Source: Eledone cirrhosa
Taxonomy: Eukaryota
Length of the DNA: 64,000 bases
Direction: 5' to 3'
Assembly: GCA_964016885.1 (NCBI GenBank)
Contig: OZ024741.1
Coordinates: forward strand, 154,814,001-154,878,000
The notes beneath the pieces are model-generated. The model was not told the origin of the DNA, did not search any database, and saw only the letters and a program-made list of their open reading frames with translations. The stretch's first letter is position 1, and each line of letters starts with the position of its first letter. Positions 1 through 58,349 of this stretch are shown here, in pieces. Made by a program: the position numbers and the translations under genes.

Positions 1-162
1 TAGTATTTTTCAATCTAGCTAACTTAGTCATTTACAATACAAACACTGATATGTTGGTATCTGTGTTTATCATATATATTAATTTATATTATCTTGTATT
101 ATATATATATATATATGAAGAAGAAGTTTATGAAACGGAAATGCGGGTATAAAGAATTTACT

Positions 163-261
163 AGGTAACAATTGTTTCTATACCTCGCTATTTGTATAAT
201 ATAAAAATATTATCTTAAATCGTAGGTACACTGTAAGAGAACACACCATGTTGTCAGACCT
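163..261 (-). ncRNA. HHR-like motif in the PLE 3' end (variant core, long insert)
   Basis: Minus strand reads AGGT-CTGACAA-[~72 nt including a TGTACCT/AGGTATA stem]-GAAACAATTGTT-ACCT. Stem I is 4 bp, stem III is palindromic, and the core has G8A. Confidence 0.55.
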
Positions 262-733
262 TTATGGTAGAATGATAGGAGAATATTTTATACACTATAT
301 TTGTGAGAAAGTAGGAGGTAGGAAGGGAAGAGGAAGAGGGAAGCGAATAAGGGGGAGGTAGTCTTAGGATTCAAGACTGTCAGAGTAGTAGAGATTGTAT
401 AGAAGAAAATGTTTTGGCAGCAGTTAGCTAAATGAGACGTGACAGGGTTGGCGGGGGAAGTAGATTCTTCTAGTGGTGTTGTTTGGACAAAATTTAGTTA
501 AAGGGGTCAATGTAGTACAGAATTATAGACAAGTTATTGGGGCTATCATAGTAGCAGGATATTTATAAAGGGGTCTAAAAAACAGTGTTTAGTGCTATTA
601 TTATAAAAAGCGATATCGTTTGTATAAACATATAAAAATATGAAATAAAAATAATAAAAATTTGCAAATGGTGGTGTAAAAAGATAACATTACATACATT
701 TAAAAACAGAAGAAGTCGTTTTTAAACGATGGT

Positions 734-2553
734 TTAAAGTGAACGTTCAATTTTGCTGTTCAAAAGTTTGTTTTCCGACGTTAAAATGCAGTATATCTCC
801 ATATTGCATAATTTACAAAATCGGTGATTTTGCTTATATGCTGGCGCAAATGAAATAATTTGCCAATCAAGGGAGAATGCTTGATTGTTCTTCCGAAGCT
901 GCCAGGCTTTATCGGCGAGGGTTGTTACGGAGCGCATTTTCTCATGCTTGATCGAAGATCGATGTTGGTATAGACGAGCTTTGAAAGATGTTGCGGTACA
1001 TACGACGTAATACCATTTGTTGGTTCCGGAATTTATTGTACATCGGTAGACAATATTGCGTGTTAGGCATTGGTTATTCAATGGGCACGAACCTGGTTTA
1101 GTGCAGTTACAGTTATTTTTATGTTTTGCAGTAGTATCCTGGATAGTTTGGTGGGGTTGTAGCTGCGTGTTAGTGCGTTGTATGTCGCTATGCTGGTGCG
1201 CTGTGACATTAGGGATGTACTTATTTAGTATTGTTGAGTTGAGTTTTTTAATTAGTTGTTCTATGTTAGGTGCAGTGGAGTATGAGAGTCTAATGGTGCG
1301 CGAGTTTAAGATTTTATAGTATTTATGTGAATTTGTAAAGTGTTTATTGATCAGTGTATAGAATTGTGAGATAATCTTAGTGCTAATAGAAATATTGTAC
1401 ACGAGGTTATACCATATGTACTCTCTAAGTCTAACTCTATTTGTTGGTTTGCACCTATTATTATGCCTATTAATGTGTCTGTGTGGTGCAATACTAGTTC
1501 GACTTAGATGTGATTTATTCATAGTACCTATGTGGTTATCTTCTAGATATTCTATTTTCTCGCAGTAACCAGCTTTTCTAAGTGCGTCGTTATAATACTC
1601 AGCATGCTCGTTGAAGGTCTGCAAATTAGACGATAGTCGGGAGATCCTTATGGATATATTTTTAGGGATAGATTTAATAATGGAATGGGGATGGTTCGAT
1701 CTTACATTAACGTATTTGAGATTTTTGTTAAGTTTGTGAAATGGCTTTATATTACCGTTATTAAGGTTGAAGGTGACATCCAAGAAATTGACCACTTTAA
1801 GATTGTGTTCGAAGGTAATACTAAGTCCTAGTTCTAAGAAAAGTTTCCTAATGTTTTTACGTCGCCTTTCTAGGTTTTGTTTGTTCATATTTTTTACTAA
1901 TAGGAGTGCATCATCACGGTAGATTCCGCCGTGGAGGTCAATAAATTCGCTCTGGAGTCTGTGAGCTATATAGATTCCAACCAAATCCATAACTTCCGCC
2001 AGAACCCATCGTAATGTCAAATTCCGAGGGTCTATCCCTGCGGACCCAATAACTATTTTCAAAATGGACTACTGTGCGTCTAGCTTCAAGTATAATATTA
2101 ATATCCTCGTTTGTGAGGTCCGAGTTAACCTTAGCGAATGAGAGGGCCTTATGCAGAGTTTCAGGTGAAATAGATGAATAGTATTCATCTATATCGATTT
2201 GAATAAAAGAAGATTTGTTTTTGTCACTGATGTTATTGAACCAACTTATTGCCTGTTGAGTATTACCCCATAATTTAATATTTACCTTAGCCTTAACTTG
2301 AGGGATAATACGATCTAATATGTTCTTACTGATTCTACCTATATCAGATTTTGAAGGACATATCAATCTAATTTTAGGGTTAGTGTCGAAGTTAGCCTTA
2401 TGGTCCTTCAAATTAAAGGTCGGTGTAGCTGGAGATAGGGGTTCCGTTCTGTCGTCGATTTTCAGTTTTTTAACAATATCACATGCTGCGTTATTAATGT
2501 TGGTTAGTGTAGTTGCGTTTGTTTTTTTGTACTTCGTATGTAATTCCTTACGT
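734..2553 (-). pseudogene. PLE RT/GIY-YIG ORF, frameshifted at ~2000 and 5'-truncated
   Basis: ATG GGT TCT G|GCG GAA GTT switches frame between MGS and AEV. The YIG motif reads YVV. The N-terminus runs into (TA)n. Confidence 0.9.
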
Positions 2554-3161
2554 ATAAAATATATATATATATATATATATGTATATTTGTATATATATAT
2601 ATATATATATATATATATATATATATATTCATAATTAAGCAAAACAAGACCACAAATTTCACAAGGAAGACATTATTAAAAGATTGTCAACATATTTTAG
2701 TTTGATGTAAGGAATGTAGAGAATAATAATAATAATAATAATATTAATAATAATAATATCCGTTTACAATTGTTTCGCTACTCCATATAATATTTCTAGA
2801 TCAGATGACTATATATCATTATGGATCTGGTTCAGTTGAAAATAATTAACATATTTAAAATCAGAACTAATGAATATTTCCAGCTCTGTGCACCTAACTT
2901 CTGCATGAACCCAGCCACCTAGCTGCTTTCTACTTCATATTGCACATTGAGCACATGCCTTTACACTTTGGCTTCTAACTAATTCACCAATCTCACCTCT
3001 CCTATCTCCAACTCTCTCTTTAAGATTGGTTACTCTTGAACTGTGTATATATATATATGTATATTTATATATATATGTATATTTATATATCTATATATCT
3101 ATATTTATATATATATATGTATATATATATATATATATGTATATATATATATATATATATA

Positions 3162-3492
3162 TCATTTCATCATCATTTCATTTTACATCCACTTTTCCCT
3201 GCTTGCAAGGGTGGGACGGGAACTGATTCTGGCTTGATTTCTACAGCTGGATGCCCTTCCTAACACCAACCTCATTTACAGTGAGTGCTGGGTGCTTTAT
3301 TGCCGTGGCACCTCCACGACCACTTTGCAGTGGAATGATATGGACCCAAGTCCCTATCATCTCATTTCTACAGCTGAGTAAACTGGAGCAATGTGAAATT
3401 AAGTGTCTTGCTCAAGGAAACAACACATCACCCGGTCTGAGAATTGAACTCACAACCTTTCGATTGCAAGGCCAATGCTCTAAGCACTAAGC
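3162..3492 (-). mobile_element. tRNA-derived SINE family A (CORE-like middle, RTE-type 3' tail)
   Basis: A/B-box-like head (GCTTAGTGCTTAG..GAGTTCAATTC), TCCTTGAGCAAGACACTT middle and (ATG)n tail. Near-identical to the copies at 19131, 19531 and 25919. Confidence 0.85.
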
Positions 3493-3823
3493 TTATATAT
3501 ATATATATATATATATATATATATATATATATATATATATATATATATATATATATATATATATATAAATATAAATGAAAAGTATAGAGATTGTTGTAGC
3601 AAGAAGCCAACAGTATTCCATAATATATAAGTGACTATAACGTCAAAATGGAAAAATAGTTAACGTAAGATGTGAGAAATTAATTCAAACTCAATTCAAA
3701 AAGAATCAGGATATAGATTCATCCACAGAATTTGGTGAAATCCAGGGAAAAATCAATAGCGCCTTAACTCAGAATAAAATAAAGTTTAAAATACTCATCC
3801 TTCAATTTGGAAAAACTACAAAT

Positions 3824-3897
3824 GCTCTGTATAGTCTTAAAAGACTATTTCACGAAACTTTCAGTGGGGATGGTCACGGTTGGATCATCAGCAGAGC
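3824..3897 (-). ncRNA. Type I hammerhead ribozyme motif
   Basis: GCTCTG-CTGATGA-[33 nt]-GAAA-TAGTCTTTTAAGACTA-TA-CAGAGC. The core is perfect, stem I is 6 bp and stem III is 7-8 bp. Stem II is poorly paired. Confidence 0.7.
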
Positions 3898-4190
3898 TCA
3901 AAGACACGATAACCAAAGTTCCACTGTTTATAATATGCTAAAAAGGGAATTTAAAAGCAGGCTAGTTCAATATCATGCGTAATTAGGAAGAAAAATTATA
4001 TATATATATATATATATATATATATACACAGTATTTACGTATCGAGAGAGAGAAAAAAAGGGGAGGATAGGTGATACATATAGTTATTTGCCAAGTAGCG
4101 TATGCCACAGGTGCTCGATACTAGTGCCGGCAGTATTAAATATTCGAAGTGTTAATATTTAGTGGGCTAGAGAATTAGCAGAGCGTAAGC

Positions 4191-57068: not shown

Positions 57069-57174
57069 ATATAGAAATGGCTTCTACGGGACTAGAACGG
57101 TTTCATTTGGGAGATATCATCCATGATTTGTCCCGAATGAAACAGTTCTAGTCCCGTAGAAGCCATTTCCATAT
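57069..57174. repeat. 106-bp imperfect palindrome with truncated minimal HHR halves (single-arm relative at ~41916-42025)
   Basis: Centre at 57121/57122; GATGA..GAAAC(A/C)GTTCTAG. Confidence 0.85.
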
Positions 57175-57265
57175 ATATATATATATATCAGATAGGGTAT
57201 GGTAAAAAAAACAGATGGACCATAACCCACCAGAATACTCGATACTTGGGGTAGTAGAGTGGGTA

Positions 57266-57381
57266 ATATGAAAAGATTCAGGACCCTGACGGCTGAGCTC
57301 CAGCCGTTTCCTCAGCTAAATCTGAACTAGATCTCGAAGCGGCTGGAGCTCAGCTGTCGGGGGTCCTGAATCTTTTCATAT
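57266..57381. repeat. 116-bp imperfect palindrome made of the HHR stem III/I half of the 4681 family
   Basis: Minus strand GAAACGGCTGGAGCTCAGCCGTCAGGGT. The flank 57190-57265 is the reverse complement of ~4790-4868. Confidence 0.85.
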
Positions 57382-57443
57382 ATATATAGAATAAGGAAAA
57401 TGAGAAGTTCATTGTAGATGTTAAAGAGTTCTTTGTTAATAAA

Positions 57444-57524
57444 ACTGTGATACATATTTCAATGACCATTGTGGTTACGTGATTGTTCTATCATGTAACC
57501 AGTCACATGATCTCATCAGACAGC
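57444..57524 (-). ncRNA. Type I HHR with extended stem II (inverted partner)
   Basis: GCTGT-CTGATGA-[TGGTTACATGAT/ATCACGTAACCA]-GAAATATGTATC-ACAGT. Confidence 0.78.
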
Positions 57525-57652
57525 ATCATTATGTAATAATTGTTTCTACTTTTGGCACAAGGCCATCAATTACTCAGTACATTACTGGTACTTTATTTTA
57601 TTATGTAATATGGCCACATCATTATGTAATAATGTAGCCATATTACATAATG

Positions 57653-57737
57653 AAGTTGTCTGATGAGATCACGTGACTGGTTACATGACTGAACAATCAA
57701 GTAGCCACTATGGTCATTGAAATATGTATCACAGCTT
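57653..57737 (+). ncRNA. Type I HHR with extended stem II
   Basis: AAGTTGT-CTGATGA-[52 nt; TGGTTAC/GTAGCCA]-GAAATATGTATC-ACAGCTT. Confidence 0.78.
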
Positions 57738-58349
57738 TATTAGTAAAGGATTCTTTAACATCTACAATGAACTTCACATTTTCCTTATTCTAAATATACT
57801 CCACCAATCTCATTTGGAAGAAGTAACATGACGTTGAGTGCTTGAATTGAATTACATTATTGCTTACTGATTTGTGTGTTGCATACGCAACCCCTTTTAG
57901 TCAGCATGTCTACCGTAACTATATATTTATATATATTAATACACTAGCAGGGAAAATGGACGTTTGATGATGATGATGCATATATATGTATATCCAGGAA
58001 AACAGACATTAAATAATGATTATATATATGTACACATTAGTATGGAAAATAGACATTCAATGATAATGATGTATATATATATATATATATATACTAGCAG
58101 GAAAAATGGACATTGAATAATGTTTACCATATATACTTGAATATAAGTCAACCCTTTATTTTATGTCTGAGAAATGGACAAAAACCCAAACCCCATTTAT
58201 AAGCCAAGGCAGCTAATCAACACATTATGTTTAGATGGAGTAATTTTGAAATTTTCATGAGTATAAAATATATTTATGAAGTTTTAATATTTTGATATTT
58301 AAAATGTTTTAAGTATCATTTAGAGTATAGTTTTTGTTTCACAACTCCA

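Follow-up and report, generated by a model that had tools for sequence, protein, structure and literature searches.

The way in which the tandem and inverted ends of Penelope-like elements (PLEs) arise, and the role of the hammerhead ribozymes (HHRs) that they carry, have been named as open questions (PMC8557442). The transcription start of PLEs has been located in the pseudo-long terminal repeat (pLTR) (PMC8557442), in which an initiator-like TCACT has also been named (PMC3846280). In vitro, an anole PLE cut and extended both strands, two internal start sites defined its tail, and HHR cleavage was dispensable (PMC11167929). Here we analyze 64,000 nt of the 3.0-Gb genome of Eledone cirrhosa (G000:C2:154814001-154878000, called the window throughout), for which a preliminary description had proposed a swarm of HHR-bearing mini-elements driven by Naiad-type PLEs. 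Our results suggest that these short stubs are pLTR pieces of many PLE families inserted in (TA)n, and that they were probably made by twin priming on one linear RNA.

The families form 17 library entries, some of them related (B and F; E and its close sister E2), and not roughly ten unrelated families as first thought. In longer copies nine of the 17 run into PLE open reading frames (ORFs), six Hydra-type and three Neptune/Nematis-type. The proposed origin from PLE pLTRs is confirmed by these nine families, which are termini of coding PLEs, and for the same reason they cannot be regarded as stand-alone non-coding mini-elements. The distance from ORF to terminus is constant for each family (B 304-382 nt, F 260-436, G 554-629, H2 536-670, C 1386-1472 and P 300-307). 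In detail, the parent of family B is a young element with a 674-aa frame in locus L338 that comprises reverse transcriptase (RT), a CX4CxxC linker and GIY-YIG. The family F protein shows 43-61% identity to B, and family L has a Neptune/Nematis-type ORF 1.4-1.6 kb upstream in L325 and L326. Families H2, C, P and E2 lead to ORFs related to the PLE of family G; the Hydra-type ORF lies about 1.4 kb upstream in long copies of C and 1.15 kb upstream in the E2 locus L331. Two family G copies 3.0 kb apart flank a full ORF in L337, forming a partial tandem with direct pLTRs. In family D the start of a Hydra-type ORF with DKT lies downstream, and rare copies have the 3' untranslated region (UTR) upstream. 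D copies in L499, L501 and L504 fuse the ORF start to the 3' UTR and are internally deleted mini-elements with two pLTRs.

The PLE of the window itself (ORF 734-2068) encodes RT and, C-terminal to it, a domain of GIY-YIG type with the linker CxCX5C, DKT is found in its full copy in L337, and a relative exists in Hydra vulgaris. The C-terminal endonuclease, the linker, DKT and this relative together place it in the Hydra clade as PMC8557442 delimits it, in agreement with the lack of a CCHH motif. Families B and L, and F through its identity to B, show the CX2-5CxxC linker and CCHH-type C-terminal endonuclease of Neptune/Nematis, a joint label assigned here from domain features. As its endonuclease is C-terminal, the window PLE is not a Naiad, and the suggested Naiad drivers have to be given up, since the endonuclease follows RT in the window element, B and L, and the ORF-linked families carry consensus HHRs. 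These assignments rest on domain order, linker motifs and sequence relatives; Pfam named no family for three PLE proteins, and the atlas neighbours are RT/GIY-YIG clusters. We regard the families as real and abundant additions to the Hydra and Neptune/Nematis groups, and most of what they show is PLE biology already known.

The inverted copies already suspected are indeed head-to-head fold-backs, with the inverted, 5'-truncated copy and optional one-sided tail that characterize endonuclease-bearing PLEs. Nine families have two discrete 3' ends 44-108 nt apart, the difference being the tail. Among 300 fold-backs, 224 have one long and one short arm, 20 two long arms and 9 two short arms, while 47 are unclassifiable, so that 224 of the 253 classifiable ones pair a long with a short arm. 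Fold-backs of family E2, kept apart against double counting, carry one tail in 62 cases, both in 2 and none in 3, with 1 unclassifiable. Most two-tailed fold-backs (17/20) belong to family D and are probably head-to-tail D copies. With one 31-mer 66 copies of D were collected, 54 of which are fold-backs and 51 of these have exactly one tail; in 24 the tail is on the arm that retains the extreme 5' end, in 27 on its partner. A single cDNA folding back can yield no partner that exceeds its own length, which implies that priming took place twice. Minority variants are common to both arms of one insertion 1.9-5.9 times more often than to unrelated arms in eight of eight families, which fits one template. 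In the tails of C, D, E, E2, H and J, the short 3' end is closely followed by a small inverted pair, ACTC...GAGT, which forms the predicted hairpin in E2 and H only.

We suggest the following course of events. At a TA repeat the PLE endonuclease would cut the two strands, whose ends would then each serve as primer for the copying of one and the same linear RNA, beginning at either of two fixed sites within it. The resulting cDNAs, which may often run off the RNA 5' end, would then likely be joined head to head, and RT might sometimes jump from the RNA 5' end to a 3' end, as in family D. A more specific form, in which a dimeric PLE complex primes both strands on one RNA, each strand using a different start site, stops at the transcription start and then joins or jumps, is offered tentatively, with rather more doubt than confidence. 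If it were true, inverted copies, one-sided tails, solo pLTRs and more-than-unit copies would arise without a ribozyme-made circle.

A single cDNA could instead stall at the ribozyme helix or the RNA end, fold and copy itself, with endonuclease or repair setting the short arm. Such a snap-back would account for the shared variants of the arms and for the small nested hairpins at some fold-back centres, and self-priming has been proposed from palindromic junctions (PMC3846280). We nevertheless consider it unlikely, as the longer, tailed arm lacks the extreme 5' end in 27 of 54 D fold-backs, single non-folded copies end at the short 3' site too, and the ends of E and E2 cluster past the helices at a conserved TTAGT.

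This clustering is pronounced. The start lies at most 30 nt upstream of GAAA in 68 of 74 family E arms and 84 of 92 E2 arms (the two arm sets may overlap), the mode being the A of TTAGT in either family. The motif, which we take to resemble the initiator consensus, sits inside helix II, and because the clustered 5' point lies there, copies of E and E2 contain half-HHRs. In family D, where arms of bystander loci not selected by the D query were used, 45 of 45 end between -5 and +34 of helix I and 28 of 45 by +9. From these positions we infer that the clustered 5' end may be the transcription start in the pLTR and that many stubs may be run-off cDNAs from the RNA 5' end.

Family D also separates a jump on linear RNA from a ribozyme-closed circle. 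A tail-spacer-head piece of D had the joint spanned in at least 28 of 40 matches, and contigs of two public sequencing runs show the tail-head joint as well. The RNA runs with matches are two (metatranscriptome contigs, one 226-nt contig each), the other runs being contigs of unstated kind. In 19 head-to-tail joints, from loci selected by a junction query, the unit end is ragged (167-175) and a G, which replaces the upstream letters of the parent, precedes the head in 17. None of the 19 lies at the ribozyme cut site 46/47, and the longest D run comprises 1.4 units, stopping again at the head. Joints made by ribozyme closure of a circle should all be alike, whereas the observed raggedness agrees with RT jumping, on linear RNA, from the 5' end to 3' ends that vary; together with the distance of the joints from the cut site, this makes an HHR-closed circle improbable for D. 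The G could be cap-derived or stem from a fold-back master copy.

The joints bear in addition on the possibility that the stubs are retrozymes, that is, non-autonomous units cut by their HHRs from tandem transcripts, circularised and copied by PLE enzymes in trans. Animal retrozymes do derive from pLTRs (bioRxiv 10.64898/2026.07.22.740005), D has head-to-tail and more-than-unit copies, and eight families are without an ORF link. Elsewhere in the genome (G000:C1:1239862-1244279) there is a two-armed, retrozyme-like array in which HHR cores recur in tandem every 311 nt, which points in the same direction. However, head-to-tail arrays of the retrozyme type were not found at the window sites, D has a coding parent, nine families end coding PLEs and the joints of D vary in position and lie elsewhere than at the cut site, all of which makes this explanation improbable.

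As had been proposed, the family consensuses fold as type I HHRs, with CUGANGA (or UUGANAA) and GAAA boxes, an NUH site and helices I-III. The sequence of helix I varies between families yet pairs, helix III is palindromic or, in E, I and J, long, and E and E2 use a U3-A8 core. Exceptions are family H, which deviates at position 9, and the first box of J and site M, which are unconfirmed. The H box (window 25342-25273, minus strand) reads CUGAAG followed by G instead of A9 in 24 of 24 aligned copies, with a 5-bp helix I, and represents either a variant of the core or extra sequence that separates G8 from A9. The window copy of E2 has a three-way junction as its minimum-energy fold; in single-strand folds of five window-type HHRs the z-scores were -0.5 to -1.6, and E2 alone formed the full junction. 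Three fold-back transcripts are predicted to be 87-98% paired, at -240 to -319 kcal/mol. Since each fold-back strand transcribes the antisense arm first and a long duplex would result, the HHR is predicted to be buried, suggesting that the ribozyme may be a passenger in these stubs. In Xenopus, 8 of 9 dimers failed to cleave in vitro (bioRxiv 10.64898/2026.07.22.740005).

The extensive predicted pairing and the very high genome-wide number would also suit a host-adopted system that keeps the palindromes for their RNA products, be it double-stranded RNA, small RNAs, editing substrates or self-cleaving ends. Against this, an intact canonical core is missing at 13 of the 20 window sites, identity has dropped to 70-91% in older copies, and of 326 arm pairs only 3 were flagged for strand-polarised A-to-G marks, so that we consider host adoption very improbable. 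Widespread RNA editing of the fold-backs was rejected on the latter count. The family F fold-back of the window (5102-5488) has five A-to-G changes on the top strand and none on the other, a weak editing hint.

A strict HHR descriptor gave 37 matches in 600 kb of random genomic DNA (60 stretches of 10 kb, each with a shuffled control) and 0 in the shuffle, so that the motifs are far above chance expectation. This rate extrapolates to roughly 185,000 HHRs genome-wide. A simple core pattern with short helix II had 162,061 genomic matches versus 22,478 for the reversed control, an excess of about 140,000. The supposed local swarm is, however, a genome-wide property: the strict descriptor finds 1 match in the window (48045), against a mean of 0.13 after shuffling, whereas random DNA has 3.9 per 64 kb. 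The library of window families recovers 23 insertions in the window versus 85 in the random 600 kb (9 per 64 kb), and the window is at most modestly enriched because the library favours it and random DNA has other families. First-look candidates, which are not copy numbers, were A 1517, B 787, C 876, D 2786, E 2981, F 2045, G 1077, H 2708, H2 796, J 653, L 1483 and N 47; families I, K, P and E2 were recognised within genomic loci examined. With well over 100,000 cores, this genome may carry one of the largest hammerhead loads reported, and most of its tiny copies may be run-off cDNAs from the capped 5' end of PLE RNAs, a reading that we hold with slightly less than even confidence.

The window is repeat-rich and contains 121 (TA)6+ runs, a density about that of the random DNA; ten fold-backs sit in (TA)n, in line with the suggested targeting. 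The short inverted repeats with TA flanks might recall miniature inverted-repeat transposable elements (MITEs) of DNA transposons, or chance palindromes, but this is hardly credible, given that the arms are unequal, variably truncated and continue into RT ORFs and that HHR cores are far above shuffles; ordinary MITEs are refuted for the nine ORF-linked families, and equal, fixed-end terminal inverted repeats are absent.

Several points weigh against twin priming of PLE-derived RNA. Many loci are top matches of end-fixing queries, which inflates fold-back and tail counts, and the arm-pair counts are therefore sample-based and not genome-wide rates. The D 31-mer held the G that is absent from the parent, so that its 66 of 66 fixed ends are biased; for this reason, and because a coding parent was found, an earlier view of D as a fixed-length orphan was dropped. 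The D test of reduced bias rests on the 45 bystander arms, and diverged D subfamilies may stop aligning at an apparent clustered 5' end. A wrong anchor underlay the 5'-end tests of A, C and F, and n was 2-5 in the tests of B, G, H, H2 and L. Long copies of B, C, G and L are truncated variably in the ordinary way, which together with the clustered stubs suggests that both routes operate. The arm variants could be shared through gene conversion or subfamily structure, and in the anole system the in vitro start sites were the same on both strands, leaving the long-short coupling unexplained (PMC11167929). Finally, eight of the 17 families (A, E, H, I, J, K, M and N) had no ORF link in the copies examined; for family A a targeted search found none, and among the copies of family I there was none either. 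Of two candidate links, one was rejected, as the Neptune-type endonuclease upstream of A in L353 belongs to a nested B/F-type copy; the other, a Neptune-type ORF 3.2 kb upstream of H, lies across a microsatellite in one locus and was not confirmed by a second.

In the window itself, HHR-like sequence is present at all 20 places listed in the preliminary description. Both catalytic boxes are intact at seven (3824, 4681, 11097, 16572/16785, 17597/17753, 40050/40285 and 57444/57653), a box is mutated at seven (163, 4568, 5223, 6361, 10639, 30636 and 38970) and the first box is missing at five (2762, 8470, 41960, 57090 and 57283), while site 25257 has the non-canonical CUGAAG-G box typical of family H. 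Other genomic copies exist for 19 of the 20 sites, and for 38970 the genome search matched none. The claim of giant palindromes was right as to the inverted duplications, ten head-to-head fold-backs being found by library search, and overstated as to size, which is 0.1-0.7 kb. A first HHR descriptor that allowed zero mismatches missed most window sites, and an Rfam scan of the window had no hammerhead family among the matches listed (150 of 192), only miRNA-like hairpin noise. The features are collected in the table below.

PLE-derived ends and fold-backs in the window (strand ".", fold-back)
Feature	Position	Strand	Remarks
Hydra-type PLE, 5'-truncated, ending in family G pLTR	116..2559	-	RT then C-terminal endonuclease
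ORF pieces of this PLE	734-2068 and 1938-2559	-	
Family H2 end, Hydra-type	2628..3045	-	first HHR box deleted in this copy
Family I end	3573..3960	-	both boxes intact (3891, 3851), long helix III
Fold-back of another PLE-like end	4030..4285	.	truncated downstream of its HHR
Family B end, older	4318..4611	-	A9 mutated
Family E2 end	4612..4870	+	complete U3-A8 HHR (4686, 4749)
Family F fold-back, Neptune/Nematis-type	5102..5488	.	left arm G12 mutated; right arm starts at GAAA
Family A arm, old, with inverted tail piece	6298..6530	-	C3 mutated
Family J fold-back	8345..8510	.	each arm is 3' half of HHR only
Family K end	10625..10890	+	first box mutated; two further loci
Family L end	11056..11220	+	canonical minimal HHR (11099, 11119), helix I 2-bp
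Family C fold-back, young (98-99%)	16440..16897	.	HHR intact on both arms; 83-nt tail on left arm
Family B fold-back, young (98-99%)	17375..18045	.	HHR on both arms; 44-nt tail on right arm
Family H end	25210..25440	-	helix I 5-bp, CUGAAG-G box, long helix II region
Second Hydra-type PLE remnant, ending in family P pLTR	29828..30760	+	RT piece 29828-30244; first box mutated
Decayed HHR-like site M, unconfirmed	38861..39035	-	no other copy found
Family N fold-back, old	39995..40490	.	both boxes on both arms, ~125 nt apart
Family D fold-back stub	41918..42024	.	first box cut
F-like end, U3-A8 HHR at 48045	48008..48241	+	absent from the preliminary description
Family D fold-back	57000..57187	.	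both arms cut within first box; Hydra-type parent (L501, L503, L505)
Family E fold-back	57185..57381	.	arms start within helix II, leaving only 3' half of HHR
Family A fold-back	57380..57920	.	both boxes on both arms; tail on right arm; SINE-like repeat in centre (SINE, short interspersed element)

In the family G HHR of the first PLE the box at 257 is mutated, helix II is short by an 18-nt deletion and GAAA lies at 178. The outer part of the H2 end is an inverted match to the tail, the helix II of the family I copy is 5 nt shorter than in locus L297, and a longer copy of the end at 4030..4285, in locus L172, bears a U3-A8 HHR. Between 57000 and 57920 the fold-backs of D, E and A stand back to back, each within the TA flank of the next, and such nesting is frequent in other genomic loci examined.

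Other elements were also found in the window. An LTR retroelement at 11395-15541 has 84%-identical terminal repeats, its frames being presumably gag-, RT- and integrase-like, and two adjacent frames at 53309-55036 (296 and 278 aa) look to us like a hAT-type transposase. A 730-aa RT frame of the long interspersed element type (23058-25250) is nearly identical to a copy in L330, and decayed relatives of it are numerous in the window. A 700-nt element at 21784-22490 bears direct repeats of 95 nt that are 97% identical, and it has relatives in L025, L049 and L133. The inverted pair of a tRNA-like SINE at 19132-19860, with weak tRNA matches, has no relation to the PLE fold-backs.

The value of the finding lies in its scale and in a testable mechanism, the anatomy itself being published. 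Thousands of near-identical copies of 140-350 nt, in which the 5' end and both of the alternative 3' ends are fixed, constitute a minimal template that allows exact predictions, and the twin-priming reading would make a long-unsolved step of PLE insertion testable. For octopod-type genomes, the fold-backs mean a dense layer of latent hairpin RNA. The earlier suggestion that the arrangement is undescribed has to be withdrawn in several respects: opposite-strand HHR pairs, many families per genome and the U3-A8 core are already in PMC4209133, the inverted copy with tail has been published (PMC8557442, PMC3846280), and an HHR-bearing Hydra element of Octopus bimaculoides is in print (PMC8557442). 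The excerpts of a 2026 repeat annotation of Octopus vulgaris make no mention of ribozymes (PMC13282606). Among the matches listed, in the form available, literature searches gave neither a survey of these motifs in cephalopods nor a PLE paper proposing twin priming or template jumps for inverted pLTRs.

Compared with known systems, Naiad PLEs have the (TA)n preference, the inverted copies and the tail in common with the elements described here, but differ in their N-terminal endonuclease and in having no canonical HHR (PMC8557442). Metazoan non-LTR retrozymes likewise are small, pLTR-derived and PLE-dependent with a type I HHR (PMC7229834; bioRxiv 10.64898/2026.07.22.740005); they form head-to-tail arrays, whereas the window elements are dispersed singles or head-to-head pairs. 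The minimal HHRs of metazoan PLEs (PMC4209133) agree in their many consensus families per genome, palindromic helix III, U3-A8 core and opposite-strand pairs 100-700 bp apart in mostly truncated PLEs. In contrast to these, helix III is long in E, I and J, E2 is predicted to fold as a monomer, and the 2,000-9,000 HHRs counted there per genome compare with about 140,000 here for one short-helix pattern alone.

The anole Poseidon element PAc matches in the two RT start sites that define the tail, in the extension of both strands and in the dispensable HHR cleavage (PMC11167929). Its inverted copies are left unexplained in that paper and its starts show no strand bias, whereas the genomic pairing seen here is near-obligate. 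Families B, F and L resemble Neptune/Nematis in RT, CX4CxxC and a GIY-YIG with two Cys and two His, as well as in a minimal HHR with a bulged base and G10.1-C11.1 (PMC8557442). The Hydra-clade PLEs, including Hydra-1_Obim of Octopus bimaculoides, share the C-terminal endonuclease, CxCX5C and DKT, a canonical HHR whose helix II often has U opposite U at its base, (TA)n as target, an inverted 5' copy and a one-sided tail (PMC8557442). Unlike in that description, there are at least six families here, copies are mostly tiny, tails measure 63-83 nt instead of 30-40, helix II reaches about 125 nt, long-short pairing is near-constant and 5' ends are clustered.

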